Of a DNA stretch of 64,000 bases, positions 1-59,633 are shown piece by piece (position 1 is the stretch's first letter; every line of letters begins with the position of its first letter). The notes beneath the pieces were generated by a model. The model was given only the letters and a program-made list of their open reading frames with translations, was not told where the DNA came from and searched no databases. Origin of the DNA: an uncultured Fibrobacteraceae bacterium (lineage in GTDB: Bacteria > Krumholzibacteriota > Krumholzibacteriia > LZORAL124-64-63); contig CAYYYS010000012.1 of assembly GCA_964476155.1 (NCBI GenBank), forward strand, positions 6,475 through 70,474. Direction: 5' to 3'. The translations under genes and the position numbers were made by a program.

Positions 1-3000
1 TAGAGATACATGCCCGACGGCATGGCGTCGCCGTTGTCGTTGCGACCGCTCCAGATCACGGTGTGGGTGCCGGGAGCGTATTCGCGGTTGGCAAGCATCG
101 CCACGAGCTGGCCCTTCAGGTCGTAGACACCGAGGCGCACGTGGCCGTCACGGCCGGTCGTGAACTCGATGGTGGTCTGCGGATTGAAAGGGTTTGGCAT
201 GTTCTGGGCCAGAAGAGGCGCACCCGGCACGCCGTCGGCGACCGGGGTCAGGCCGCTGAGATCAACAACCAGGGCCGCTTCGGCATTGACGTAGAAGTCG
301 GCCTGATCCTCGCCCCAGACCATCGCGAAGTCCATCGTCAGCGAATCGCCGACGGCGATGGTGAACGGGCCGGTCGAAGCCGTGACCGACCAGTCGTCGC
401 CGGTCAGGCCGGTGGGCGTATTGATCTGCCCCGAGAGTGATTGCCATTTGACTCGGTCGGTGACAAAGCCGTTCGGGTAGACATCCGTGGGATTGTTGAT
501 GCAGTGGAGGTTGGCCACGGGGCCGTCACCCAGCACGGTGATGCCGTAGTGCGGAGTTCCGGCATTGGTGAACATGACACTCGACCGTCTGGCCGGCAGC
601 GTCGTGGACGAGTTGGCGCCGGCGTCGTCGATGTCGAAGTCGCAGAAGATGCCGCCGTAGTAATCGACGATATCGACCGCACTGTTGTTCCGCACCGTGT
701 AGCGCATGACGACGAAGTCGTCGTTGGGCGCGTCGGTAAAGGCGAAACTTTCCTGGGTCACCACGACATCCAGGGGCGTGAGGTTGCCGCTGTCGTCGAA
801 GATGGCCTGGAAATCCTGGTCGGAAACATCGTTTCCGGCATCCATGACGCGTCCGTTGGGCGTGGTCGTCACGACCCACTCGTAGGGATTGGTCTCTGCG
901 TAGTCGTGGTTGCACAGCGTACCCCGACTGTTGCCACCCCAGAAGGAGCCGATGTACAACCCGTTCTGGCCGGCGGGTCCAAAGCCGTCGCCTTCGGACT
1001 GGTCGGAGCTCATGAAGCCCAACGAGCCCATGTCCGTGACCGTCAGCAGGACGTTGTTCGCGTCATGGGTCTTCCACTCGGGCAAGCCCACGAAATACTC
1101 CACGTCGAAGATCTTTTCGTAGCCGTTCTGGGCGGTAACCGTCAGCAGCATGGTGAAGGCTTCGCCCTGCGCGGCGCCCCCGTCGGCGGTCAGGCTGAAG
1201 ACATCGCCGGTGTTGTCGGCAGTGCCGCCACCCTGGACGATGGTGCCGTAGGCCGCTGCCCCGTCAGTAACCGTCACCGGGTCGCCGGCTTCCACGGCCA
1301 AGGCGCCCGCGACGCTCGTGCCGTCGGTGTTGGGGCTGTTGTTGACCAGCGTGAAGACGATGTCGAAATCCTCGCCCGGATCGATAACGCCGTCGGCGTT
1401 GTTGTCGAGGATCTCATAGCTCAGCCAGGACAGGTGGGGGGTCGTCGGCAACGGCACGGCGATGACCGCGGCGTTACAGTCGATGCGGCCCGAACCATAT
1501 TGGTTGTCTTTGCCGGCGGCACCCAAAGGCAACGCGGTCTGTTCCATGATCGAGTCCATGCCCGCGGGCGACAGGCTCGGATTCTTCGACAGCATCAACG
1601 CGGCGAGACCCGCAGCGTGCGGACACGACATCGAGGTGCCGCTCCAGGAGTTGCCGGAGTAGCCGTTGGGAATGGTCAGGGAGTTGACGTTCACGCCGGG
1701 CGCGCACACGTCGGGCTTGATCAGGCCGTCGCCCGGGTTGTAGGGCCAGTCATACCACGGCGCCACGTTGCCCCAGTGCACGGGGCCGGTCGAGGACGAG
1801 CCGTAGGGGCCGTCGCTATAGTAACCCGTGCCGCCCACGGCGACCACGCCGCCGGTCGACGTGTAGGGCGTCCCGGCCAGGGGATTCCAGGGCGCGGGAC
1901 AACGCGCGGTCAACCCCAGTTCGATGGGCGGGTTGTAGGCGTAGTGGTCGTTGCCCGCGGAGTTGAAGAGCAGGATGCCCGCCACGCGCAGCACGTTCGT
2001 GTTCACGCGCTCGGCCCTCATGTACGAAGCCGGCAGGTCGCCGGGCACGCCCAGCGACATGGTGATCACGCGTGCGCCGTTGATCAGCAGATAGTCGTAG
2101 CCTTCCCAGATCATGCCCAGGGTGCCGCTGCCGCTGCTGTCCTGCGACTTGATGGCCATGATCTTGGCGTCGGGCGCGACACCGGTCACGGTACCGTTGG
2201 TGCCGTCGCCGGCGACGGTGCCCGCGGTGTGGGTGCCGTGGCCCGGACTGGCGGAATCGTCGTTGGGATCGCCGTCATCGTCGCCCACGTCGTAGCCGTG
2301 GATGTCGTCGACGTAGCCGTTGCCGTCGTCGTCGATGGCGTTGCCGGCGATCTCACCAGTGTTGGTCCACAGGTTGTTGGCGATGTCGGGATGGGTCAGC
2401 CAGACACCAGAGTCGATATGGCCCACGACAATGTCGGTGCCCGTGTAACCCAGGTCCCAGGTATGGTCGGCGTCGATCCACTCGATGCTCCAGGCGTTGC
2501 CCTTCTCGGTGGCATCGGCGGCCGCGTCTTCGGGCGGCTTACTGACGCAACTGCCGAGAGTCAGGGCCGTCGGATCGAAGCTCTTGTCGTGATGCAGGAC
2601 ACCGGACACGGCCTTGTCGGCCGCCAGCGCCTCGAGAGCCGCCGCGTCGGCGCGGAAGTTCACGGCGTTGGCCACCAGCAGGGTACGAACCTGCTCGATG
2701 CGGCCCAGGCCCTTCGCGGCCTCGAGACCGGCGAGCGTGCCGGCATGGACGCGATCAAACTGGTGGCGCAGAACGTCGACGACGGCCGCGCGGCGCTCCT
2801 GATGCGTGGCGCCGGCCAGGTCGGCGTCCAGGGCCGCCATGTCGGGGCGATCATCAAGCAACAACAGGACCCGGACAGTCTCACCGGCAGCCTTGCCGGC
2901 CAGGATGTCCTGGAGGTCGGGGGCGATTTCCGCGGCGGGCGCGACGGCGGTCACCGTCAAAGCCAGCAACAGGAACAGGGGCGTGATTAGCCTACGCAAC

Positions 3001-3002
3001 AT
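1..3002 (-). CDS. Secreted subtilisin-like serine protease (peptidase S8) with propeptide and C-terminal T9SS/FlgD-Ig-like sorting domain. It is partial: the 3' end runs off the window start.
   Basis: Minus-strand frame is open from ATG at 3002 (RBS AAGGAG 8 nt upstream) to the window edge, so it is absent from the ORF track. Signal peptide MLRRLITPLFLLLALTVTAVAPA. Catalytic motifs HIDSGV and GHGTHTAGTVAG. C-terminus ...FNPQTTIEFTTGRDGHVRLGVYDLKGQLVAML... matches the CTD seen on other genes here. Confidence 0.85.
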   Translation of the reverse strand, partial: MLRRLITPLFLLLALTVTAVAPAAEIAPDLQDILAGKAAGETVRVLLLLDDRPDMAALDADLAGATHQERRAAVVDVLRHQFDRVHAGTLAGLEAAKGLGRIEQVRTLLVANAVNFRADAAALEALAADKAVSGVLHHDKSFDPTALTLGSCVSKPPEDAAADATEKGNAWSIEWIDADHTWDLGYTGTDIVVGHIDSGVWLTHPDIANNLWTNTGEIAGNAIDDDGNGYVDDIHGYDVGDDDGDPNDDSASPGHGTHTAGTVAGDGTNGTVTGVAPDAKIMAIKSQDSSGSGTLGMIWEGYDYLLINGARVITMSLGVPGDLPASYMRAERVNTNVLRVAGILLFNSAGNDHYAYNPPIELGLTARCPAPWNPLAGTPYTSTGGVVAVGGTGYYSDGPYGSSSTGPVHWGNVAPWYDWPYNPGDGLIKPDVCAPGVNVNSLTIPNGYSGNSWSGTSMSCPHAAGLAALMLSKNPSLSPAGMDSIMEQTALPLGAAGKDNQYGSGRIDCNAAVIAVPLPTTPHLSWLSYEILDNNADGVIDPGEDFDIVFTLVNNSPNTDGTSVAGALAVEAGDPVTVTDGAAAYGTIVQGGGTADNTGDVFSLTADGGAAQGEAFTMLLTVTAQNGYEKIFDVEYFVGLPEWKTHDANNVLLTVTDMGSLGFMSSDQSEGDGFGPAGQNGLYIGSFWGGNSRGTLCNHDYAETNPYEWVVTTTPNGRVMDAGNDVSDQDFQAIFDDSGNLTPLDVVVTQESFAFTDAPNDDFVVMRYTVRNNSAVDIVDYYGGIFCDFDIDDAGANSSTTLPARRSSVMFTNAGTPHYGITVLGDGPVANLHCINNPTDVYPNGFVTDRVKWQSLSGQINTPTGLTGDDWSVTASTGPFTIAVGDSLTMDFAMVWGEDQADFYVNAEAALVVDLSGLTPVADGVPGAPLLAQNMPNPFNPQTTIEFTTGRDGHVRLGVYDLKGQLVAMLANREYAPGTHTVIWSGRNDNGDAMPSGMYL

Positions 3003-3356
3003 GGCGGCTTCTCCTTAAGTCAGGGGCAGGGTCCGTACGCGAGACGCACGGATCCTAGTGCAGGCATCTGGATGGCGGGGCGGGATGGAGTCTGTCTATC
3101 TCCCTCTCAGACGCATTTCTCCCAAATTTCTCGTATAGGATAGCAAATTTGAGGGGGGAATACAACGGGGGCGCTCTTCGGGGGCGCTCTTCGAAACGAT
3201 TCAGGAAGGTGCGGGCGGCGGCGTTATCACATCACTCGGCCGCCAAGGAGACACGCAGAATGTGTTCTGTGAACATGCGTGAGATCTTTCCCACCTGTTG
3301 CCATCAAAACGTCCAAATAAGCAAAAGTCTACACGCGTACGCTTTGAAATCGAATA

Positions 3357-4221: not shown

Positions 4222-4372
4222 AGGTCTCTCTTTCGGTTCGTATCCAGGATCCGCGCAAGAGCAATGAAAACCGCGTCGCGAACCTCTTCGATACGCAACG
4301 CCTCCCGATATCCGAGAATCACCCGATCCCGATCCGCAAGGCGCGCCGGCTCCACCTGAAGCGCGTAGGCAT

Positions 4373-4636
4373 TCACGTGGCGATCCGATAGTCGACCACG
4401 CCGACACCGTGATCGGGCAGCGGTGCAAGATTCCCCGGACCGGATTGCGCATCGTGTACGAAATGCCCGCAACAACACTGGAGCGTGAAGCAGCACGGAC
4501 GGTCGTTGAAACGAGCGCCGAGGTCACGGATAGGCGCGTCGATCAGCGACGGTTCGAGCTCCGAGAGCTCATGGATGCGCGCCTCGGTAAACCGGGGATC
4601 GTCGACCAGGGGCTTGGCCGGTGCGAAGGTCTCCAT
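4373..4636 (-). CDS. Small Cys-rich hypothetical protein (Mss4-like/Gfa- or MsrB-like Cys cluster RPCCFTLQCCCGHFVHD)
   Basis: High GC3 on the minus strand. It overlaps other short ORFs (4543..4731 with a signal-peptide-like N-terminus in another frame), so the region may be frameshifted. Confidence 0.3.
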   Translation of the reverse strand: METFAPAKPLVDDPRFTEARIHELSELEPSLIDAPIRDLGARFNDRPCCFTLQCCCGHFVHDAQSGPGNLAPLPDHGVGVVDYRIAT

Positions 4637-4902
4637 GTGGTCCACTCTACACAATCAGCGTCTATCACGGCAAGGGCGGCTTGGGTCAGGATCACCATGG
4701 CGGCGATGGTCATCAGGGATAGTGTCTTCATCTGATAATCCTATTCTTCGACAGGACCGTGATCTGATCGGCTTAATCGCATTGTGATCATATCGCGAAC
4801 AGAATCCACATCCAGCCGAGCTTCAAGGGCCCGCCGGATGACTCCGGCGGGCCCCGCGTTGAGATGATTCATGGCGAATCACCCGCTCATGACGATGGAC
4901 CG

Positions 4903-5328
4903 TCAGGAGCCTTTCTTGCCGCAGCCGCTGTGGGCCTTTCCGTGGGACGAACAGCCCGCGGACTTCTTGGCGTGGGCGGAACAGCCCTTGCCGCCATCGG
5001 CCTTGACGCTGCATCCATCGGCCTTGTCGCCATGGGCACAGCAGCACTTGCCGTCCTCGGCATGCGGACAGTTCGCCATGTCTTCCTTGCTGCACGGCTT
5101 GCCCTTCTCGGCCTTGGCGCAGCAGCATTTGCAGGTCTTGCCGTCGGTGGACTTGCATATCTCCGCGCAGGTCTTTCCCTCGGCGTCACAACACTTGACG
5201 GCCGCGGCCTTACACGCCTCGGACTTGGCCTTGGCACGGCAGTCGTCCCCGGCCAGGGCCGAGAATCCGGTCATCAGGATCACGGCCGCCATGAATACGG
5301 CCATCAGGTTTCGCTTGGTCGTCGGCAT
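4903..5328 (-). CDS. Secreted Cys/Lys-rich metallothionein-like metal-binding protein
   Basis: RBS GAGGAG 6 nt before ATG at 5328. Signal peptide MPTTKRNLMAVFMAAVILMTGFSALA. The mature region has about 30 Cys in CKCCC / KCCC / GC repeats interspersed with Lys and His. Confidence 0.7.
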   Translation of the reverse strand: MPTTKRNLMAVFMAAVILMTGFSALAGDDCRAKAKSEACKAAAVKCCDAEGKTCAEICKSTDGKTCKCCCAKAEKGKPCSKEDMANCPHAEDGKCCCAHGDKADGCSVKADGGKGCSAHAKKSAGCSSHGKAHSGCGKKGS

Positions 5329-5377
5329 TGCCGACTCCTCTCGGTAATGGGTTGGTATTACACGATGAATCGAGGAG

Positions 5378-5806
5378 TCAGGCCGACTGCGGAGGGGGCA
5401 CCGGCGGCTTGAAGAGATTGACGGGAGCCGCCTGGTCGGGCGGCGGAATCAGCGGGTCGGCAAGTGCGAAGTCGAAGTCGAAACAGCCGGGGTTGACGAA
5501 GACGAGATGGTCACCCGCCGTGAGACACCGGCTGCAGGTGCGCGGAGAAGGGCAATCCCGTGATGGGCGCTCGCCGCAACCACCGGTCGATGTGCCACAG
5601 CAAACGTCCGGTGGCGTTGTCGCGCAGCTCGTGGCACAGGACTGCTCGCAGGCGTGAGGGGCGTGGCGCGCCTCGGCGGTCTGCCGACAGGCGTCGATGA
5701 TGATGTCCGGAACGGCGTCGGGCATCTCGAGCAGGGGGATACACACGGCCCAGACGGCCAAGGTCAGCTGGAAAATGCGTTTGGTGGTTTTCGTGATCCG
5801 TGTCAC
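5378..5806 (-). CDS. Cys-rich membrane-anchored hypothetical protein (first gene of the metallothionein-like operon)
   Basis: GTG start at 5806 downstream of an extended -10 element. N-terminal TM/signal anchor IFQLTLAVWAVCIPLL. Cys-rich segment CEQSCATSCATTPPDVCCGTSTGGCGE...CSRC. Same strand as, and 50 nt upstream of, 4903..5328. Confidence 0.5.
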   Translation of the reverse strand: MTRITKTTKRIFQLTLAVWAVCIPLLEMPDAVPDIIIDACRQTAEARHAPHACEQSCATSCATTPPDVCCGTSTGGCGERPSRDCPSPRTCSRCLTAGDHLVFVNPGCFDFDFALADPLIPPPDQAAPVNLFKPPVPPPQSA

Positions 5807-5850
5807 GCGATTCCCTGCGTTATATGAAGTCGCTCCCGGGTTGAGACATA

Positions 5851-5859
5851 ATTATAGCA
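5851..5859 (-). promoter_or_regulatory. Extended -10 promoter element TGcTATAAT (minus strand) for the 5806..4903 Cys-rich operon
   Basis: Minus-strand sequence ggtgTGcTATAATtatg lies about 45 nt upstream of the GTG at 5806, in an AT-rich intergenic stretch. Confidence 0.35.
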
Positions 5860-5929
5860 CACCACAGGTATATAGGTTCCCGAGAATCCAGGGCTCAGAT
5901 CGACACCTTCAACGCCGATTGAAACGCAA

Positions 5930-6160
5930 TTGAACCAGGCCCAGGACCAAGCGTGCAACATCATGACGTTGATCGGTCGGAAAAATCAACAGATCTCGGA
6001 CAATGTTCAGGGCAATCTCGGACTGGTTGCCATGCCCCTGATCGATCAGCTGCGGACGACCGCCACGGATGTCCAGATGGAAATCCTCGATGTCCTGGAG
6101 AACCGGATCAAACATGTGACCCGCAAACTGGGCCTCACGACCGGGTCCGGCCTGCTCTGA
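5930..6160 (+). CDS. Small hypothetical protein (76 aa)
   Basis: ORF with fairly high GC3 in a lower-GC intergenic region. No clear RBS. The overlapping antisense ORF 5909..6187 is equally possible. Confidence 0.25.
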   Translation: MNQAQDQACNIMTLIGRKNQQISDNVQGNLGLVAMPLIDQLRTTATDVQMEILDVLENRIKHVTRKLGLTTGSGLL

Positions 6161-10464: not shown

Positions 10465-11181
10465 ATGAAGCTGAACCGGTTATTGACCATTCTGCTCATG
10501 ATGATCCTCGTCACCACCGCCCATGGCGGTATACATAGGGGATCATCCGCTTCCATGCGCCTGGACGCCGAGCCGCCCCAGATCGGGATCGTCACCGCGC
10601 CCGAGGGCGAAACCTTCATCGCCGGCGACACGCTGCACTTCGCCTGGTGGGCGAGCGACAGCTACCCCGCGCTCCACGATTCGAACCGGGTAGCCGCCGT
10701 GCTGGTGCGCGAAGCGCTTCAGGATTCCACTACCTACACCGTCACCCTCGACCACACGTGGGACTGGATCGCCCCGGAGGTGAGTTCCGCCAATTGCGTT
10801 TTTGAAGTGACCGTGCGCGACGAGTTCGGCAACACCGCCACCACACGCAGCGACGTCTTCCGCCTCCTGCGCTCCGACACCGCGGCTCCCGATACACCCG
10901 CGACGATACGTTTGGCCGCACCCGCACCCAACCCATTCAATCCGCAGACGACTATCACCTTCGCGCTGCCCGAATCGGGACCGGTCGACCTGTCGGTCTA
11001 CGATCTGCACGGTCGGCTGGTGCGCCGTCTGCATCAGGGCGCGCTGCCCGCCGGCTCCCACACCCGCACCTGGAACGGCCGCGACGACGACGGACGCCGC
11101 GTCGCCGGTGGTCCGTACATGGTTCGCCTATTGGCCGGCGGCGGCTTCAACGAGGCCCGAAAAGTGGTGTTGTTACCATGA
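10465..11181 (+). CDS. Secreted hypothetical protein with C-terminal T9SS/FlgD-Ig-like sorting domain
   Basis: Signal peptide MKLNRLLTILLMMILVTTAHG. CTD ...APAPNPFNPQTTITFALPESGPVDLSVYDLHGRLVRRL...GPYMVRLLAGGGFNEARKVVLLP. Confidence 0.75.
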   Translation: MKLNRLLTILLMMILVTTAHGGIHRGSSASMRLDAEPPQIGIVTAPEGETFIAGDTLHFAWWASDSYPALHDSNRVAAVLVREALQDSTTYTVTLDHTWDWIAPEVSSANCVFEVTVRDEFGNTATTRSDVFRLLRSDTAAPDTPATIRLAAPAPNPFNPQTTITFALPESGPVDLSVYDLHGRLVRRLHQGALPAGSHTRTWNGRDDDGRRVAGGPYMVRLLAGGGFNEARKVVLLP

Positions 11182-18565: not shown

Positions 18566-18574
18566 GATTACGGC

Positions 18575-19090
18575 ATGGCTATCGAGCGTCCCGATCCGGC
18601 GACCTACGCCCGGTATTTCCAGCAGTATGTCGACCAGGTGCCCGAAGGGGATCTGCTGTTCACGCTCACCAGCCAGGTCGAAGCCACCTGCGCCCTGGTC
18701 GCGGGGTTCGGCGAGGAGGGGGCGCTGCATCGCTATGCCGAGGGCAAGTGGAGCGTGAAGGAAGTAGTCGGGCACGTGATCGACATGGAGCGGCTCTTCG
18801 GGTACCGCGCCCTGAGCTATGCGCGAGGAGATACGACGCCCCTGCCAAACGTCGAAGAGGACGAGTGGGCCGCCGCGTCCAACGCGAACACTCTCTCCCT
18901 GGCCGACCTGTTGGACGAACTGCTGTCGGTGCGTCGCGCCACGGTTGCTTTCTTCGCCAACCTGGACGCGGCGGCCTTGTCGCGGAATGGGATCGCCGGG
19001 GAGAACAAGTTGACCGTGGCCTGCATGGCCTGGGTTTTGGCGGGGCATGAGATTCATCATGGGGGGGTTGTTCGGGAGCGGTATAAATAG
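18575..19090 (+). CDS. DinB/YfiT-like (DinB_2) metal-dependent hydrolase superfamily protein
   Basis: 171 aa with conserved His residues (HVIDMER ... GHEIHHGG) in the characteristic four-helix-bundle spacing. Confidence 0.75.
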   Translation: MAIERPDPATYARYFQQYVDQVPEGDLLFTLTSQVEATCALVAGFGEEGALHRYAEGKWSVKEVVGHVIDMERLFGYRALSYARGDTTPLPNVEEDEWAAASNANTLSLADLLDELLSVRRATVAFFANLDAAALSRNGIAGENKLTVACMAWVLAGHEIHHGGVVRERYK

Positions 19091-26924: not shown

Positions 26925-27506
26925 CTAGCCGAAGTTCTTGGCCACGAAATCCCAGTTCACCAGATTCCACCAGTTCCCCACGTACTTGGGCCGCGCGTTG
27001 CGCGTGTCCACGTAGTAGGCGTGCTCCCAGACGTCGACCACCAGCAGCGGCGTCACGTCGGAGGTCAGGGCGGAGCCGGCGTTGCCGGTGTTGAGGATCT
27101 CCACGCCGCCGGCGGCGGTCTTCACCAGCCAGGTCCAGCCGGAACCGAAGTTGCCGACCGCGGACGCCGCGAATTTCTCCTTGAACTCGGCGAAGGAACC
27201 GAAGGCCGCGTTGATGGCGTCGGCCACCGCGCCGGTGGGCTCGCCGCCGCCGCTGGGGCTCATGCCGTTCCAGTAGAAGGTGTGGTTCCACACCTGGGCG
27301 GCGTTGTTGAAGATTCCGCCGGCGGGCGCCGACTTGACGATCTCCTCGAGGGACTTGCCCTCGAACTCGGTCCCGGGAACCAGGTTGTTCAGGTTGGTCA
27401 CGTAGGCCGCGTGGTGCTTGCCGTAATGGTAGTCAAGCGTCTCGGCCGAGATGTGGGGCTCCAGCGCGTCCTTGGCGTACGGCAGATCCGGTAGTTCGAA
27501 GGTCAT
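26925..27506 (-). CDS. sodB: Fe/Mn superoxide dismutase
   Basis: [35 protein letters not shown]...DVWEHAYY are unmistakable SOD motifs. 193 aa. Confidence 0.95.
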
Positions 27507-27682
27507 GGCAACGTCCTTTTGTTATCCGTCATGGTCGGTTGAATTCGATTCTGATTGTCAGGATAGTATTACTCCGCGGGGTTCGCCAGTCTTGAAATAC
27601 CATCATCTTTCACCGGCTCCCGTGAGACTTGATGAACCAGATCCTGGCATCCTTTTATGCCATGATCAGGCAATATCAATAT

Positions 27683-28959: not shown

Positions 28960-29386
28960 CTACTTGTACCCGATGAGCCGGATATTGAGGATGGCCCGCA
29001 CGGGGGCGAGATCGGCGAGGGCCCGCCGCGGTTTCGCCGGCAGTCCGCTCAACACGCGCTCCAAGAGGCGGGGGAGCCATGGTCCGATATCCACGTAGCG
29101 GCCCTTGGCGCCGACGCGACAACGCAGTCGCGAAAATCCCACCATGCGGAACATATCCACCAGTTCGGCTACAGTGTACTCCTTGAGATGGAATCCTGTC
29201 GCCACCGTATCGAAATGCCGCGACACGTCGTGGGGGCCGTTGCTCCGCGGGTGACGACTTGCGTATGAGTTGGTAATGATCGGGGACGCGACGGAAAAGT
29301 TCGTCGTAGAGTTCGGAATAGAGCGTACGCCGTTCTTCGACGGCCGCCGAAATAATATGGTATAATAGCCTCGGGAAAAACTCCAT
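28960..29386 (-). pseudogene. Truncated and frameshifted remnant of a class I methyltransferase C-terminal region
   Basis: Two overlapping frames on the minus strand: MEFFPRLLYHIISAAVEERRTLYSELYDELFRRVPDHYQLI... and ...RHFDTVATGFHLKEYTVAELVDMFRMVGFSRL.... No SAM-binding N-terminal domain. Confidence 0.3.
29336..29366 (+). promoter_or_regulatory. Sigma-70-type promoter with extended -10 (TTCGAC-19-TGgTATAAT)
   Basis: Perfect TGGTATAAT at 29358..29366. It lies 37 nt upstream of the TTG-start leader ORF at 29403 and 475 nt upstream of the PLD-like gene. Confidence 0.4.
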
Positions 29387-29840
29387 CAACCTGGCGGTTT
29401 CCTTGCAAGACCCGATAGCGGAACACACCGTATTGACGCACCCCGACGGCCGCGCCCTCATGACACCCCTGGCCGACGGCCGCTGGCGTTTGGCTATCGA
29501 AACAGATACGCCTTTCGCGTGGCCGCGGCCCGTGGCCTGGGAGACCGGTTACCCGCCAGCCTTGGTCAAGACGCTGATGAATGTGAAAGGCCCACGCCGG
29601 GTCATCGACGAGATCCGCCGCGACGAGGATCCCATCTATGTGGAGAACGACCTCAGGCACGACCTCTTCTCCTTCGTCGCGCCCGAGGACCTGGTCGGCC
29701 GAACAGCGCGCGGCCCGGCGTTTCTCGCGCTACGATCACCGCGGCGACACCTGGCCCGAATTGCTGCGCGCGGGCGTGCGCGGCGGCACCGGTGGCGAGA
29801 CGCTGGCGTTTCGCAAGGAGTCTTAACGAGAGAGTCTAAA

Positions 29841-32273
29841 ATGCGTACTATGCTTATTGCCGCCGTCGTCCTGCTGGTCGCCGTGTCCGCCGCGGCCATC
29901 CCCATCTCCGACCTGCACGTCAACTACGCCAACGGCACGCCGACCCTGCTGGGTCAGACGGTCACGGTGAGCGGCGTGGTCACGGTACCCACGTACCTGC
30001 TCAACGGCTATACGCTCGAGGTGTTCGTGCAGGACGACACGGGCGGCATCAACGTCTACGTGACCGGCGGCGCGTCGAGCTGGAACCTGGCCCTGGGCGA
30101 CAGCGTGACCGTCACCTCACGTGTGGCCCAGTACAACGGGCTGACCGAGCTGGGCACGGCCACCAGCTACACGACCATCACGAATCACGGCCCGGCTTCG
30201 GCCATACCCGAGCCACAGGCCATGAGCTGCACCAGCGTGAACGACGCCTTCCTGGCCAACAACCGCGACCCGGACGAGAGCCGGCTCGTGCGCCTGGACA
30301 ACCTGAACATCACCAGCGGCGCGTGGCCGGTGACCGCCGGCGGCAACACGGTACTCACGGTCAACGACGGCGGCGGGTCCTGTCTGCTGTACATCGACCA
30401 GGACACGGACCTGAACGGCAGTCCCGATCCCGGCGCCAACTTCTCGGTGATCGGCGTGATCAAGCAGTACGACTACTCGAGTCCCTACACGACGGGGTAT
30501 GAGGTCATGCCGCGCTACCTGAGCGACGTGTTCCCCACGAGCTCGGGTCCCGTGGTGACCGGCGACGTTACCGTGATGAACATCACGTCCACCGGGGCCG
30601 GCGTCCTCTTCTTCACCCAGGGCGACGGCAGCACCGAGGTGGAATACGGCCTGACGCCGAGCTACGGTCAGACCGCCGGCTTTCCCGACGTTCGTGTCAC
30701 CGCCCACGTGGTCACGCTGACCGACCTGGTGCCCAACTCGGTCTACTACTTCCGCGCCAAATCCACCAACGACTACGGCACCTCTTACGGACCCGACCAG
30801 GTCTTCGTGACCCCGAGCGAAATCCCCGGCGAGATCCACGTCTACATGAAAGGCTCGGCCGATCACGACTATTCCCTCGACGGCCTCACATTCGTGAACG
30901 ACAACGAATCCCTGTCGGGACGCCTGATCGACCTGATCGGCGACGCCGAAGCCTCGGTGGACGCCTGTCTCTACAGCTTCAGCCTGGACAGCGTGCGCGA
31001 CGCCCTGATCGCCGCCCACAACCGCGGTTGCCAGGTGCGCTTGATCATCGACCAGGACAACTCGCACGCCGACGCCGATGTCTGCCAGGCGGCGGGCATC
31101 CCCTACATCGACAGCGGCTTCGGGGGCAACCACGCCAGCGGCGCCATGCACAACAAGTTCGTGGTGATCGACGGACGCGACGTGGACAAGTACAACGACT
31201 GGACCTGGACCGGCAGCGCCAACATGAGCATCTCGGGCGACAACGACCTGAACAACGCCCTGGCCATTCGCGACTTCGGCCTGGCCCAGGCCTACACCCT
31301 GGAGTTCAACGAGATGTGGGGCAGCGACACCCAAACCGCCAACGGAACCCTGGCCCGCATGGGCGACGCCAAGCTGGACAACACGCCGCACGTGTTCACC
31401 ATCAACGGTCTCGACGTCGAACAGTACATGAGTCCCAGCGACGAGGTGACCGACCGCGTGATCGAGGCCATCGGCACCGCCGAGCAGAACATCTACTTCG
31501 CCATGCTGGCGTTCACCCACAACGACATTTCCGACGCCATGCGCGACCAACGCGACGCGGTGCCGACCCTGGGCCTGGCCGGTGTCTTCGAACAGGATCA
31601 GAGCGATTGCACCAGCGGCGGCGAGTACTGGCGCATGCATGGCGACGCCTGCGCGCCCGACCCCTGGTCGCCGGCGGCCGATGTGTGGCTGGACACCGCT
31701 CTGCCGGGCAGCGTCCTGCTGCACCACAAGTACCTGCTGATCGACGCGCCCGGCGATCCCCAGACCAGTCTGCCGAAAAGCGGCGGAGCCTTCGACGCGA
31801 TGGTCTTCACCGGCAGCCACAACTGGAGCTACAGCGCCGAATCGATCAACGACGAGAACACCCTGGTGATCCACGACTATGTAATCGCCAACCTGTTCCT
31901 GCAGGAGTTCGCGGCGCGTTACGCCGAGTCCGGCGGGTCCGAGCACCTGGGCTGGGCCACCGGTGTGGAGGACGGCCCCGACGCGGCGCCCCGACTGCTC
32001 GCCGGCCTGCGCGCCTGGCCGAATCCCTTCAATCCCCAGGTGAGTTTCTCGTTCATGACCGGCACGACGGCCCGGGTCGACGTGAGCGTGCACGACGCGC
32101 GGGGGCGGCTTGTGCGCTCGCTATACGGCGGGAAGGACCTGGCGGCTGGACTGCATGTGCTGGGGTGGGATGGACGCACCACTGACGGGCGGGCGGCCGC
32201 GAGCGGCGCCTATTTCCTGCGCGTGAGTGGCGGCGGGGAAACGATCACCGAACGGGTGACGTTGGTTCGCTGA
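29841..32273 (+). CDS. Secreted phospholipase-D superfamily enzyme (two HKD motifs) with FN3-like domain and C-terminal T9SS/FlgD-Ig-like sorting domain
   Basis: Signal peptide MRTMLIAAVVLLVAVSAAA at an internal ATG. HKD motifs AMHNKFVVIDG and LLHHKYLLIDAP. FN3-like ...VYYFRAKSTNDYG.... CTD AWPNPFNPQVSFSF...VSVHDARGRLVRSL...GAYFLRVSGGGETITERVTLVR. The in-frame upstream 146 codons (29403..29840) look like a decayed leader ORF. Confidence 0.85.
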   Translation: MRTMLIAAVVLLVAVSAAAIPISDLHVNYANGTPTLLGQTVTVSGVVTVPTYLLNGYTLEVFVQDDTGGINVYVTGGASSWNLALGDSVTVTSRVAQYNGLTELGTATSYTTITNHGPASAIPEPQAMSCTSVNDAFLANNRDPDESRLVRLDNLNITSGAWPVTAGGNTVLTVNDGGGSCLLYIDQDTDLNGSPDPGANFSVIGVIKQYDYSSPYTTGYEVMPRYLSDVFPTSSGPVVTGDVTVMNITSTGAGVLFFTQGDGSTEVEYGLTPSYGQTAGFPDVRVTAHVVTLTDLVPNSVYYFRAKSTNDYGTSYGPDQVFVTPSEIPGEIHVYMKGSADHDYSLDGLTFVNDNESLSGRLIDLIGDAEASVDACLYSFSLDSVRDALIAAHNRGCQVRLIIDQDNSHADADVCQAAGIPYIDSGFGGNHASGAMHNKFVVIDGRDVDKYNDWTWTGSANMSISGDNDLNNALAIRDFGLAQAYTLEFNEMWGSDTQTANGTLARMGDAKLDNTPHVFTINGLDVEQYMSPSDEVTDRVIEAIGTAEQNIYFAMLAFTHNDISDAMRDQRDAVPTLGLAGVFEQDQSDCTSGGEYWRMHGDACAPDPWSPAADVWLDTALPGSVLLHHKYLLIDAPGDPQTSLPKSGGAFDAMVFTGSHNWSYSAESINDENTLVIHDYVIANLFLQEFAARYAESGGSEHLGWATGVEDGPDAAPRLLAGLRAWPNPFNPQVSFSFMTGTTARVDVSVHDARGRLVRSLYGGKDLAAGLHVLGWDGRTTDGRAAASGAYFLRVSGGGETITERVTLVR

Positions 32274-33647: not shown

Positions 33648-33812
33648 ATTTGGTCACCTTTGCTGCGTTCTGTTCTCGCCAGATCAGAGCTTTTAGTCCA
33701 TTGTGTGCTACTCGATTCCCGTGAGCTACCGCCCTCATTTTGTGCCCAAAACGAATGAGAGACAACCCGGTTCTTTGTGAACGCAACGCGTCTTCGAGAC
33801 GACGGCTTGGAC

Positions 33813-35969
33813 ATGACACACGATCGCCCCACACACAGCGCGCTTGCCGCCGGCCTGTTGTTCGTATGGATGCTGATACCTTGCGTCGTGTTTGGCGTGT
33901 CCAACGGCGAGGTGCCGATCGACTCGTGGATGCTGGAGGGCAAGGGCATCCCCTGTCGCGGTCACGCCAAGGGCCTGGGACCGAACAAGGCCCCCGAAAA
34001 CCATCCGTCCCAGGACCTGATCGATGTCCTGCACTACGCGAATTATTTCATGCTGAATTTCGCCACCCAGGACATCCAGGGCGCACAGCTGATCACCTTC
34101 TCTCCTCTGCAGGGGGCCGTGACCGAGCTGGTCCTGGATTTCGTTGACGAGATGTCTTTTACGTCGGCGGCCCTGAACTCCTCCAATTACGCGCCTCTCC
34201 CTTTCGTTCACGCCAACGACCGCGTGACGATCTCACTGCCCTTTGAGGGCCAGGCCACCACCGATACGATCACGGTCATACTGACCTTCGAGGGCGCGCC
34301 GCAGCCTGACGGAATCTACGGTTTCCGGTTCGTCGAGCGCGAAGACGGTAAACTGGTGGCGGCCAACGTCAGCGAGCCCTGGAGCGCGCGTTCATGGTGG
34401 CCCTGCAAGGACGACCCGCGCGACAAGGCCACGTTCGGCACATCCCTCTATTCGCCCGCCGGCGTGACCGGTGTCTCGAACGGAGTAGAGCTTTCCTCGG
34501 GGCCCGTAAACCCGTACCTGGACGATGACGAGAAAACACGTCTCGAAGATCACCTGGCGGTTCTGCTCGGCGACAAGACCGAGTATGTGGCCGCGTACTG
34601 GCAGGAAACACATCCCATCTCCACGTATCATTTTTCGGTGGCGGCCTCCGAGTACACGCGCCTGGACGACATCTACATCGACGCCCAGGGCGACACGTTG
34701 CAGATCACCAATTACATCTATCCCGATCTGGTCCCCCAGGCCGAGATCGACTTCGCGCCGCTGTCGGACATGCTCGCCTGGTGCGAGGACACGTTCGGGG
34801 CCTACCCCTTCCCTGGCGAGAAATACGGTCATGCCCTCTTCGAGTGGGACGGCGCCATGGAGCATCCCACCGTCGCCACTTATTCGTCCCACTTTGTGAC
34901 CGGCGACAACAATTTCGACTCGATTGTCATGCACGAACTGGCCCATCAGTGGTTCGGCAATCTCGTCACCTGCGCCGACTGGTCCCATACCTGGCTGAAC
35001 GAGGGGTTCGCCACCTACGCCGAAGGTCTCTGGCGCGAGCACTCCGTGGGCGGGAGTTCGCTGAAATGGTTCATGTACCAGCGCAGCATTTTCACCTGGT
35101 GGGGGGGGGCCCTGGTCCGCGACATCCGCAATGACGACCCCTGGTACTTCTTCGCCAACATGGTCTACTACAAGGGTGCCTGGCTGCTGCACATGCTGCG
35201 TCGCGAGATCGGCGACACGGATTTTTTCGAGATTCTCAGACTCTATCCCCACGCGCGCGGCATGTCCTACGGTACCGCGACGACCGACGAATTCGTGCGC
35301 TTCTGCGAGGTATACCTGCGACGCAGCATGTCGACGTTCTTCAACCAGTGGCTCTACCGCGAAACCTATCCCGAACTGAACGTGCAATGGATGAATACCG
35401 GAACCGGGGGCGCTTCGAGCATATGGCTCGACATCAACCAGATCCAGCCCACCGACCCCTATGCCGGTGACGAACCTTTCCTTTTCAAGATCGACGTCCG
35501 CCTGGAAACCGCCGGCGGCAACGTCACCCACGTCGTCGAAGTGGACCGCCGCCACATGTTCGTGACGCTGGACGCACCGGCCAACGTGGACAACGTGGTC
35601 CTCGACCCCGACGGCTGGATGCTCTTCACTGCGGACGTGACCACGGCGGTGGATCCCCTCGCTTCCACCACCCGCGTATTGCGCCTGCGCAAGCCGGAGC
35701 CCAACCCCTTCACCGGACGCGGCATCATCGCCTGGACGACGCCCTTGTCCGGCGGCGACGAGCTGGCCGTCTACGACACGCGCGGCCGGCGCCTGCGCGA
35801 CTGGAAACTCTCCCCCGCCGAACCCGGACAGCGCAGCATCGCCTGGGACGGTCGCGACCGTAACGGTCGTCGCGTGTCGGCGGGCACCTATGTCTACACC
35901 GTCATCTCCCGCCCCACCGACGGCGGCGCGCCCCTGCGCGAAACCGGCAAGATCACACTCGCGCGCTGA
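33813..35969 (+). CDS. Secreted M1 family aminopeptidase (aminopeptidase N-like) with C-terminal T9SS/FlgD-Ig-like sorting domain
   Basis: Signal anchor MTHDRPTHSALAAGLLFVWMLIPCVVFG. GAMEH exopeptidase motif, HEXXH zincin motif VMHELAHQWFGN and the downstream LNEGFATY Glu. CTD ...PEPNPFTGRGIIAWTT...ELAVYDTRGRRLRDW...GTYVYTVISRP...GKITLAR. Confidence 0.9.
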   Translation: MTHDRPTHSALAAGLLFVWMLIPCVVFGVSNGEVPIDSWMLEGKGIPCRGHAKGLGPNKAPENHPSQDLIDVLHYANYFMLNFATQDIQGAQLITFSPLQGAVTELVLDFVDEMSFTSAALNSSNYAPLPFVHANDRVTISLPFEGQATTDTITVILTFEGAPQPDGIYGFRFVEREDGKLVAANVSEPWSARSWWPCKDDPRDKATFGTSLYSPAGVTGVSNGVELSSGPVNPYLDDDEKTRLEDHLAVLLGDKTEYVAAYWQETHPISTYHFSVAASEYTRLDDIYIDAQGDTLQITNYIYPDLVPQAEIDFAPLSDMLAWCEDTFGAYPFPGEKYGHALFEWDGAMEHPTVATYSSHFVTGDNNFDSIVMHELAHQWFGNLVTCADWSHTWLNEGFATYAEGLWREHSVGGSSLKWFMYQRSIFTWWGGALVRDIRNDDPWYFFANMVYYKGAWLLHMLRREIGDTDFFEILRLYPHARGMSYGTATTDEFVRFCEVYLRRSMSTFFNQWLYRETYPELNVQWMNTGTGGASSIWLDINQIQPTDPYAGDEPFLFKIDVRLETAGGNVTHVVEVDRRHMFVTLDAPANVDNVVLDPDGWMLFTADVTTAVDPLASTTRVLRLRKPEPNPFTGRGIIAWTTPLSGGDELAVYDTRGRRLRDWKLSPAEPGQRSIAWDGRDRNGRRVSAGTYVYTVISRPTDGGAPLRETGKITLAR

Positions 35970-41269: not shown

Positions 41270-41368
41270 TAAGCAAGCGGACCGGAGTTTTCCGGCCGCT
41301 TTTGTATCCCGTACCTTGATTCAGGGGCCTCCCGCTATCCCCGACCCCAAGCCCGAGGAAGTGTCCGC

Positions 41369-43396
41369 ATGATCGATCGCACTCGTCGTGTCTTCACAGC
41401 CACGCCGCTCTTTGCCCTGACGCTGCTGGTCGCATCCGCGTCCGCCCAGACCCCGCTGGACATCGGCAACTGGACGCTCGATCAGGAAAATTCGACACAA
41501 AGCTACACGATCCCCGGCGGCACCATCGTGCAACCCGGCGGCTACGTGATCATCTGCCGCGACCAGGACCAGGCGGCCTTCGAGAGCTACTACGGCGTGT
41601 CGTTGGGTTCGAACGTGACCTACCTGCGCTCGAACAACTCGGCGCCCATGATCAATGGCGACGAGACCTACGAACTGCGCAACGCGTCCAGCGGTCTGGT
41701 GGACGGGCCCACCGACGCGATCACGACCACGCGACGCTCGTACCATCGCGCCAATCCCGAGAGCCAGGCCTGGACGGCCACCAACGAGGTCCCGTCCCCC
41801 GGCTCGGGAGTCGAGGCGCCGGACGGCGTGATGTCGGGCCTGGTCATCAGCGAAGTGACCGACCCCGACTCGTATACGTACGAGTTCGTGGAGCTGTACT
41901 ACGACGCGTCCACCGGCAGCGGCAACCAGGTGCCGGTGATCAGCGGCGCCGGCGTCGTGCCGACCGATCCCGTGCAGTACGACGACCTGACCGTCTCGGC
42001 GACGGTGACCGACAGCGACGGCACGGTGACGGCGGTCACCTGCTACTACCGCACCGACGGCGGCACTTTCCTGACCCAGACGATGACCAACACCGGCGGC
42101 GACACCTACGCGACCACGTTCTACAGCCAGCCCGGCAACGTGGACTTCGACTACTACCTGCGCGCCCAGGACGACGAGAGCGGCGTGTCCTACGCCCCGG
42201 CCGGCGCCCCCGCGAGCTACTACACGGTGTGGATCGAGGGCCCGCCCACGGCCGATCGCGTGGTGCTGTTCGACCATTCACACGACCAGGACGCCGGCAG
42301 CAACGGCAACTGGCGCGTCGACAACAACTATCCCGATCCCTACCCCACCGATCCCACGAGCGAGACCGCGTGGAGCGGCCAGCTTTCCGAGTGGGGCTAT
42401 GAGCTCTATCTCGCGGGACATACGGTGCAGAGCAACACGGCGGCCCTGAGCACGTCGGTTCTGTCGGGCGTCGACCTGCTGATCATCCCCGAGCCCCAGA
42501 ACCCGTTCACCGCCGCCGAGAAGGAAGCGGTGCGGCAGTTCGTCTACGACGGCGGCTCGCTGTTCATGGTCGCGGACCACAATTCGAGCGACCGCAACAA
42601 CAATGGCTGGGACAGCCCGAGCATCTTCGGCGGCTACTCCGTACCGCACATCACCGTGCCGGTAGGCGGCGACACCGAGACCTTCGCCGGCGCCCTTTTC
42701 GGCCTGCACTTCCACGTGAAGGACGAGGGCAACAACTCGATTACCGGCACCTTCACCAACATCACCGCCGCCACGGGCAACCCGGTCATCGAGGGCGACT
42801 ACGGCGACGTGAACGCGGTCATCTACCACGTGGGCAACGTCATGACCCTGTGGCCGACCGCCAACCCGTACCTGACCGATGTGGGCTCGTTGATCAGCAA
42901 GGCCGAAGGCTCACCCCACGTGGCGGCCTGGTCACGCTACGGCAGCGGCAAGATCGTGGGTTACGGCGACTCGTCGAGCATGGCCGACGGGACCGGCACC
43001 GAATCCCACGAGGACAACTGGACCGAAGCCGGCAGCAACAACCGGGAATTTTTCCTGAACGCTTGCGTGTGGTTGTTGGATGATCCGGGGACCGGGGTTG
43101 AGGACGAGGTGCCGTATAACCTCGGATTGGGTCTGCGGGTTTATCCGAATCCGTTCAATCCGCGGACGACGGTTTCGTTTGTGATGCCTCGGGATGGGGT
43201 TGTCGAGGTTACGGTGCATGATTTGCAGGGACGGAATTTGCGGACTTTGCATAGCGGATACTTGACGGCCGGGGCGCAAGGGATGACCTGGAGCGGGATG
43301 GACAACGCGGGGCTACCGATGGCCAGCGGCGTCTACCTGGTGCGAGCGACAGGAGTGGGGCTGGTCAATTATACAAAGGTCGTGCTAGCCCGATAG
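41369..43396 (+). CDS. Secreted protein with N-terminal lamin-tail-like domain, central ThuA/GATase1-like region and C-terminal T9SS/FlgD-Ig-like sorting domain
   Basis: RBS GAGGAAG. Signal peptide MIDRTRRVFTATPLFALTLLVASASA. LTD motif GLVISEVTDPDSYTYEFVELYYD. CTD ...YPNPFNPRTTVSFVMPRDGVVEVTVHDLQGRNLRTL...GVYLVRATGVGLVNYTKVVLAR. Confidence 0.8.
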   Translation: MIDRTRRVFTATPLFALTLLVASASAQTPLDIGNWTLDQENSTQSYTIPGGTIVQPGGYVIICRDQDQAAFESYYGVSLGSNVTYLRSNNSAPMINGDETYELRNASSGLVDGPTDAITTTRRSYHRANPESQAWTATNEVPSPGSGVEAPDGVMSGLVISEVTDPDSYTYEFVELYYDASTGSGNQVPVISGAGVVPTDPVQYDDLTVSATVTDSDGTVTAVTCYYRTDGGTFLTQTMTNTGGDTYATTFYSQPGNVDFDYYLRAQDDESGVSYAPAGAPASYYTVWIEGPPTADRVVLFDHSHDQDAGSNGNWRVDNNYPDPYPTDPTSETAWSGQLSEWGYELYLAGHTVQSNTAALSTSVLSGVDLLIIPEPQNPFTAAEKEAVRQFVYDGGSLFMVADHNSSDRNNNGWDSPSIFGGYSVPHITVPVGGDTETFAGALFGLHFHVKDEGNNSITGTFTNITAATGNPVIEGDYGDVNAVIYHVGNVMTLWPTANPYLTDVGSLISKAEGSPHVAAWSRYGSGKIVGYGDSSSMADGTGTESHEDNWTEAGSNNREFFLNACVWLLDDPGTGVEDEVPYNLGLGLRVYPNPFNPRTTVSFVMPRDGVVEVTVHDLQGRNLRTLHSGYLTAGAQGMTWSGMDNAGLPMASGVYLVRATGVGLVNYTKVVLAR

Positions 43397-59595: not shown

Positions 59596-59633
59596 TTCGA
59601 TCTCCCTCCCGGAGACTGGTCATGAATATTCGA

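Follow-up and report, generated by a model that had tools for sequence, protein, structure and literature searches.

A conserved, lineage-restricted pair of cysteine-rich genes in Krumholzibacteriota, tentatively read as an exported metallothionein-like protein and its membrane partner

We analyzed a 64,000-nucleotide (nt) stretch of contig CAYYYS010000012.1 (assembly GCA_964476155.1) from an uncultured bacterium of the Krumholzibacteriota, hereafter called the window, and found on its minus strand two adjacent genes, B and A, that form a real, conserved, lineage-restricted and unannotated pair. Gene A encodes a small precursor with a signal peptide and a mature chain rich in Cys and Lys, and gene B encodes a Cys-rich protein with one hydrophobic helix. 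Tentatively, and with less than even confidence, we propose that A may be an exported, metallothionein-like poly-thiolate metal buffer coupled to B as its membrane-anchored Cys-rich partner. The coordinates of the two genes, taken from the list of open reading frames (ORFs), and of the two parts of A are as follows.

5378..5806, minus strand: gene B, 142 amino acids (aa), GTG start
4903..5328, minus strand: gene A, 141-aa precursor, ATG start
5251..5328, minus strand: signal peptide of A, residues 1–26
4906..5250, minus strand: mature A, 115 aa, Lys/Cys-rich, no aromatic residues

The two genes run in the same direction with B upstream, separated in the window by 49 nt. Homologs of both were found side by side in six lineages, with identities of 25–80% for A and 37–84% for B; the individual values were 99, 84, 64, 59, 40, and 37% for the B homologs and 80, 55, 55, 58, 33, and 25% for the A homologs, in which every length difference is in frame. 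A Cys/Lys-rich gene with a signal peptide follows B by 47–70 nt at every locus with readable DNA across the pair (L001, L008, L009, L014, L015, and L016). Comparison with the five closer sequences revealed that A's frame, alone among the six, is free of stops in all of them, and that it has the lowest ratio of nonsynonymous to synonymous substitution rates (dN/dS, 0.28–0.75), the two plus-strand shadow frames giving 0.7–1.4 and 0.3–0.9. The frames antisense to A are interrupted by stops in L008, L014, and L009, the second codon position is the least variable in A's frame, and the G+C content at its third codon positions (GC3) is 0.84, in line with the neighboring genes. For B, dN/dS was 0.24–0.38. 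B and A are real minus-strand genes conserved under purifying selection, and the plus-strand shadow ORFs are taken as non-coding because A's frame is the sole open one and has the lowest dN/dS. An earlier note on this DNA had proposed a minus-strand operon in which a membrane-anchored protein with a Cys cluster lies co-directionally about 50 nt upstream of the secreted one; the conserved order of B and A and the purifying selection bear this out, and the pattern that the note said would speak against it, a plus-strand ORF conserved in relatives and the minus-strand frame not, is the reverse of what was found. Two shadow ORFs on the plus strand, 4864..5412 and 4871..5347, overlap A, and one of them has A's third-codon positions, so that simple GC3-based gene picking favors it.

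The precursor of A begins with MPTTKRNLMAVFMAAVILMTGFSALA followed by GDD, comprising an n-region with Lys and Arg, a hydrophobic core and an A-L-A cleavage motif. Read by eye, the three export regions are MPTTKRN, LMAVFMAAVILMTGF, and SALA before GDD, as expected of a substrate of the Sec pathway and signal peptidase I. The n- and h-regions are conserved across the family, and the cleavage site is ALA before G or, in L015 and L016, AFA before A. The twin-arginine motif is not conserved in the signal peptide, the pair being KR, RR, or RK by lineage, and a lipobox of the form [LVI][ASTVI][GAS]C is absent from A. A is predicted to be Sec-exported and its location is most probably periplasmic, the word exported being read as periplasmic because the sorting-domain proteins described below fit a two-membrane FCB-group bacterium.

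Mature A contains 19 Cys (16.5%), 21 Lys (18%), 19 Ala, 15 Gly, and 5 His, has no Phe, Trp, or Tyr, and has four hydrophobic residues in all. Among stop-to-stop ORFs of 100 aa or more, of which the window has 282 in its six frames (median 1.7% Cys, 95th percentile 6.3%), the ORF of A ranked second in Cys content. The earlier note had correctly described a signal peptide followed by about 115 aa, a metallothionein-like Cys/Lys-rich composition and CKCCC, KCCCAHG, and GC repeats (here GC-x8); its count of about 30 Cys was too high, and this overstatement exaggerated the likeness of A to a classical metallothionein. In the six family members compared, the mature chains are 94–122 aa long with 17–21% Cys, 16–19% Lys, 0–1 aromatic residues, at most six hydrophobic residues, a net charge of +3 to +7, and the motifs CC, CCC, CxC, and CxxxC. 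Cys accounts for eight of the 12 invariant columns of the mature region in an alignment of seven A sequences. In the N-terminal half, CC, CCC, CxC, and CxxxC motifs surround a conserved DGKTCAExCK, and the C-terminal half consists of short repeats of Lys, Ser, Ala, and Gly, each closing in a Cys (GC-x8 in the window, AKSGCA in L015). Cys counts across the family switch between odd and even (19, 21, 20, 22, 23, and 20), a drift in parity more readily explained by thiolate ligands than by a fixed pattern of disulfides. The A gene of L015 is assembled from tandem repeats of 15 and 18 nt, suggesting that the family evolves through expansion of Cys motifs. A low-confidence AlphaFold model of A was mostly coil with four short helices (mean predicted local distance difference test score, pLDDT, 43).

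B has a Lys/Arg-rich N-terminal stretch followed, by hydropathy, by a hydrophobic helix; this is its single helix, and B has no cytoplasmic domain. It contains CEQSCATSCATTPPDVCCGTSTGGCGE...CSRC, and seven of its Cys are invariant (C53, C57, C61, C69, C77, C91, and C94). After the helix come, in order, H-x-C-x3-C-x3-C, PPDxC, GGCG, and C-x2-C, then a short conserved hydrophobic strand, LVFVNP, and an invariant Pro-rich C-terminus, P-x-N-x-F-x-P-x-x-PPP. The AlphaFold model of B was likewise of low confidence (pLDDT 36), and profile–profile comparison of A with B showed no relation between them. B is, judging from its sequence, probably an exported or membrane-anchored Cys-rich protein. Two other assignments were considered for B and rejected. 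It has no lipobox that would make it a lipoprotein, the sole candidate, C22, being Gly in L001 and L014, and it is not a zinc-binding anti-sigma factor, as its Cys domain follows the helix, its motif differs, and no Pfam family matches.

Several candidate expression signals accompany the pair.

5851..5881, minus strand: promoter-like region, GGGAAC at 5876..5881, a 19-nt spacer, and TGcTATAAT at 5851..5859
5811..5816, minus strand: ribosome-binding site of B, AGGGAA, 4 nt before GTG
5335..5340, minus strand: ribosome-binding site of A, GAGGAG, 6 nt before ATG
5321..5387, minus strand: predicted RNA helix at the B–A junction, consensus of six loci
4827..4854, minus strand: GC-rich hairpin after A, a 12-bp perfect inverted repeat, GGGCCCGCCGGA, 4 nt, TCCGGCGGGCCC

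The junction helix is a new observation. Its 5' arm (5372..5387) is formed by the last two codons of B, the stop and CTCCTC, and its 3' arm (5321..5340) by A's GAGGAG, the spacer, and codons 1–3, so that the ribosome-binding site and start region of A are predicted to be sequestered. The fold had a minimum free energy of −31.6 kcal/mol (0.93 of the ensemble) and a z-score of −6.0, and none of 200 shuffles folded equally well. In the consensus fold of the six loci, all 16 pairs were predicted and 90 of 96 cells were paired. The non-coding CTCCTC after the stop of B is kept even where the A proteins are only 25–33% identical, and an exact 8-nt inverted repeat at the junction, GACTCCTC/GAGGAGTC, was found independently. 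This stable, conserved helix suggests translational coupling of B and A, which is a prediction from the fold; the helix may act in this way in vivo. The ribosome-binding site, signal peptide, and partner gene of A are all conserved in relatives, as are the purine-rich box and GTG start of B in those aligned.

Upstream of B, CGGGAACT and a TAnTATAA-like box align in five of six related loci, and GGGAAC-N19-TATAAT may function as a promoter. A scan for consensus sigma-70 promoters did not call this putative promoter of B, the −35 element not being TTGACA-like. Both the TGcTATAAT box and the GAGGAG site pointed out in the earlier note were found in place, whereas the metal-responsive regulator sites that it proposed to look for in the 5810–5930 region did not emerge: that region upstream of B contains no convincing palindromic operator, and only GGGAAC-N19-TATAAT is conserved in it. 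Downstream of A, the GC-rich hairpin is probably the terminator of the operon. An identical stem follows A in L008, L014, L015, and L016, which are all the loci reaching that far; a T-run comes after it in L016, and the hairpin occurs once in the 64-kb window. A terminator scan did not call the window copy, which lacks the T-run. Between the stop of A and the GC-rich hairpin, at 4862..4884 on the minus strand, is a second hairpin (GGGTGATTC, 5 nt, GAATCATCT), an AT-rich palindrome that L008 and L014 share and L015 and L016 lack; it could bind a protein or belong to a compound terminator. A scan of the whole window against Rfam gave no match.

A and B are a new sequence family, whichever functional reading holds. 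A from the window matched no Pfam family at E <= 10, and when seven A members were compared with Pfam-A at the same threshold, no metallothionein, copper-storage, or chlamydial Cys-rich family was returned; the sole matches were at chance level, with DUF1180 (E = 0.009) and PTPRCAP (E = 0.42) each in one member. B had no Pfam match, neither protein matched NCBIfam, PADLOC, or PHROGs, and profile searches of the PDB with both gave chance matches only (E >= 1.2; E = 1.5 for A). The view in the earlier note that the pair is not obviously related to CopZ, MerP, or SmtA agrees with the lack of any Pfam or NCBIfam family match. The possibility that A is the precursor of a ribosomally synthesized and post-translationally modified peptide was rejected: its conserved N-terminal region has the form of a classical signal peptide, and a radical SAM gene on the contig of one relative does not recur near the pair.

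To examine the distribution of the pair, we searched sequence collections with both proteins. A profile of B searched against 1.84 billion cluster representatives gave five matches, four of them true clusters, including the distant homologs P0008 (40%) and P0009 (37%); the match to P0007, a 2263-aa repeat protein, was judged spurious. Scanning genomes with B returned one locus, and scanning metagenomes returned only a 98%-identical copy of the window. A profile of A searched against 5.8 billion proteins found P0001, P0002, and P0010 only. The same search missed A itself and its relatives in L015 and L016, and an identical gene is called in JGI contig L002 (10479..10904); word-indexed searches seem to lose the low-complexity A family, so its true spread may be underestimated. 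P0010 (L022 873..1274, 133 aa, on a short unrelated contig) is a borderline protein in which CKDC/CSKC repeats come after a signal peptide; lacking a B-like neighbor, it was judged convergent, and exported proteins with Cys/Lys repeats may have evolved on more than one occasion. L014 belongs to the metagenome-assembled genome CSMAG_1813, which a cold-seep genome catalog places in the Krumholzibacteriota (order LZORAL124-64-63, genus JAHIYU01). L015 and L016 have the same gene order as the window and its near-identical copies from JGI and GenBank, with flanking genes that are 77–81% identical in DNA. The operon appears to be specific to an uncultivated marine and sediment lineage of Krumholzibacteriota.

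The scheme that we favor would run as follows, with metal binding, the identity of the metal, the role of B, and the action of the helix in vivo all being what we infer. B and A would be expressed from a bicistronic, translationally coupled operon, in which the ribosome-binding site of A is locked with the 3' end of B, so that A would be translated only after a ribosome finishes B and the output of the two proteins would be tied together. A would leave by the Sec pathway and its signal peptide would be cut after Ala26, giving an 11-kDa chain that has no hydrophobic core and is probably disordered alone. With its 19–23 Cys, this chain would bind soft metals (Cu(I), Zn(II), or Cd(II)) in multinuclear thiolate clusters, with neighboring Lys stabilizing the thiolates, and would serve as a periplasmic metallothionein-like buffer or store. 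The N-terminal helix would anchor B in the inner membrane, with the seven Cys and polyproline tail of B facing the periplasm, and B may dock A at the membrane, or pass metal to or from it. A has three of the features by which metallothioneins are operationally recognized, namely low molecular weight, high Cys content, and few or no aromatic residues, the defining feature being the binding of several metal ions in metal–thiolate clusters, which is what we propose for A; the mature chain lies at the low end of their Cys density and the high end of their size.

A number of observations weigh against this metal-buffer reading. Classical metallothioneins contain about 30% Cys, compared with 17–21% in the A family, and the C-terminal half of A carries lone Cys every 6–10 residues in place of cluster motifs. 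Neither protein shows homology to metal-binding families in Pfam, NCBIfam, or the PDB. The conserved neighbors are housekeeping and stress genes (YihY/BrkB, OsmC, S9 peptidase, ITPase, PRAI, glutathione peroxidase, and S8 peptidase) and not metal genes; no metal pump, chaperone, transporter, or metal sensor is a conserved neighbor in the window and related loci, and no metal-homeostasis gene or cuproenzyme was found among the window ORFs scanned against Pfam, which were most of the long ones. In an oxidizing periplasm the thiols of A would form disulfides, and a superoxide dismutase encoded in the window indicates that the organism meets oxygen. As to the junction helix, no covarying pair was found in the six loci, its support being thermodynamic and from conservation only. 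Our confidence in metal buffering stays somewhat below even because the proposal comes from composition alone and no metal-gene context supports it.

The lack of a conserved metal-gene context would also suit a structural role, in which A and B would form a metal-free, disulfide-cross-linked pair in the cell envelope, in the style of chlamydial omcA-omcB. We consider this unlikely. The genes are adjacent, both products are exported and Cys-rich and one is membrane-tethered, and the single Cys in the flexible Lys/Ser/Ala/Gly repeats of the C-terminal half of A suit intermolecular cross-links. The chlamydial OmcA and OmcB served as a lead only; their genes too are neighbors, both products are exported and Cys-rich, and the smaller product has abundant Lys and Cys. 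Window A matches no chlamydial Cys-rich outer membrane protein family in Pfam at E <= 10, and it lacks a lipobox; B, with its single helix and 142 aa, is not a protein of 60 kDa, and the Krumholzibacteriota are unrelated to the chlamydiae in lineage and lifestyle. Relatives inhabit low-oxygen environments such as cold-seep sediment, in which disulfide networks would be hard to maintain, and the number and parity of Cys drift among close relatives.

Two of the neighbors listed above bear on a further explanation, which we hold to be quite improbable: A might be a sacrificial periplasmic thiol buffer against oxidants, electrophiles, or reactive sulfur or selenium, with B as its membrane partner. 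OsmC, of a thiol peroxidase family, adjoins the pair in the window and in L015, and L015 and the 42.8-kb contig carrying P0005 each have a glutathione peroxidase gene a few genes downstream. Lys beside Cys lowers the thiol pKa and raises reactivity, and by inference this would apply to A. These neighbors are, however, transcribed separately from the pair, OsmC being set apart from B by a divergent ORF or a further gene, and there is no linked reductase to recycle oxidized A, B having one helix and no cytoplasmic domain.

Far less probable is that A acts as a secreted, cationic and Cys-rich antimicrobial peptide against which B, in the membrane, gives immunity. The net charge of mature A (+3 to +7), its Cys content, the Sec signal, and the tightly coupled small membrane protein would suit such a role, but A is nearly free of hydrophobic residues and cannot be amphipathic, dN/dS is below 1, PADLOC and PHROGs returned no match, and the same housekeeping synteny is kept down to 33% identity, indicating vertical inheritance and not a mobile bacteriocin locus. 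That the Cys-rich ORF is a compositional artifact of high-GC DNA and the real gene is the plus-strand 4864..5412 or 4871..5347 is almost certainly wrong, for although both are long and overlap A, and one shares its third-codon positions, the antisense stops in L008, L014, and L009, the low dN/dS of A's frame (0.28–0.75, against 0.7–2 in every other frame), its least variable second codon position, and the conserved ribosome-binding site, signal peptide, and partner gene all argue against it.

The surroundings of the pair offered some further observations. In L015 and L016, B and A are followed on the same strand by a gene for a soluble histidine kinase of about 373 aa (L015 11165..12289, L016 2026..3147) with a conserved four-Cys motif, C-x9-CG-x5-C-x2-C, in its N-terminal sensor domain, the CG being part of CGTSE; in L015 this is followed by an ArsR-type HTH_5 regulator and then by a Fer4_11/NrfD/cytochrome c3 gene set. 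The kinase, the regulator, and the Fer4_11/NrfD/cytochrome c3 set are absent from the window; this context, although not conserved, is a hint that a redox or metal signal may control the pair. The window encodes an Fe/Mn superoxide dismutase (26925..27521, minus strand) and a DinB_2/mycothiol-S-transferase-like protein (18566..19090, plus strand), suggesting an organism equipped for oxygen exposure and thiol chemistry; this gene set bears on whether periplasmic thiols could remain reduced.

Immediately downstream of A, the gene at 4245..4636 (minus strand) looks broken when compared with a 179-aa protein of L016 (3162..3701, motif LQCCxGHFVH). Residues 1–86 of the latter map to 4636..4379 of the window and residues 122–172 to 4397..4245 in another frame, with residues 87–121 missing, and in same-species JGI contigs the region is called as genes of 87 and 52 aa. 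It is probably a pseudogene, or the product of an internal deletion with a frameshift. Divergent from B lies a small ORF (5930..6160, plus strand, 65–76 aa) that is called as a gene in same-species JGI contigs; it is not found upstream of B in L008, L001, or L014, and an opposite-strand ORF in the region has no Pfam match.

C-terminal FlgD_ig domains are present on many large secreted hydrolases and other proteins of the window, and the S8 peptidase also has a faint match to Por_Secre_tail. The genes concerned are as follows.

1..3014 (minus strand), 10465..11181, 29322..32273, 33759..35969, 41273..43396, and 57277..59619: FlgD_ig/Por_Secre_tail-type genes

This suggests that the genome makes heavy use of a type-IX-like sorting signal, and the many sorting-domain proteins fit a two-membrane FCB-group cell with a periplasm.

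If the metal-buffer reading is true, a Sec-exported, unfolded poly-thiol with its own membrane partner would represent a different route to extracytoplasmic metal buffering, and it would raise the question of how the thiols of A stay reduced outside the cytoplasm. If A and B are instead a disulfide-linked envelope component, the pair would still be an uncharacterized feature of the Krumholzibacteriota cell envelope. The family is tiny and belongs to a barely studied phylum, it is cheap to test, and it could plausibly yield a new scaffold for metal binding. The wider claim, which we regard as rather doubtful, is that the pair would be the first natural exported (periplasmic) bacterial metallothionein system, a Sec-secreted family with a coupled, membrane-anchored partner, with which marine Krumholzibacteriota would hold or scavenge extracytoplasmic Cu, Zn, or Cd in low-oxygen, sulfide-influenced waters and sediments. 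In full-text searches of the literature, we came across no description of a metallothionein that is naturally periplasmic.

Among known systems, Csp1 is the only exported Cys-based metal store covered in a review of the field, being a Tat-dependent copper store that is a pre-folded four-helix bundle (PMC7558416). Like Csp1, A would be exported by a bacterium and could bind many soft metal ions through Cys thiolates outside the cytoplasm. It differs from Csp1 and Csp3 in that no hidden Markov model match was obtained and in that its model is mostly coil, with no four-helix bundle; Csp is pre-folded, whereas A has no hydrophobic core, and Csp1 has a Tat signal, whereas the twin arginine of A is not conserved (KR, RR, or RK).

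The metallothioneins resemble A in composition, being small and Cys-rich with abundant Lys, Ser, Ala, and Gly, almost no aromatic or hydrophobic residues, and CC, CxC, and CxxxC motifs; like A, they evolve by motif repeats and are predicted to be unfolded without ligand. A matches no metallothionein family in Pfam, the prokaryotic SmtA/BmtA type included, and its size is roughly double that of SmtA or MymT. It further carries a cleavable export signal, which the known bacterial metallothioneins described in the same review, SmtA and MymT among them, do not (PMC7558416), and it has a dedicated membrane partner to which it is predicted to be translationally coupled. If the metal reading is right, A would be an exported metallothionein with a partner protein.

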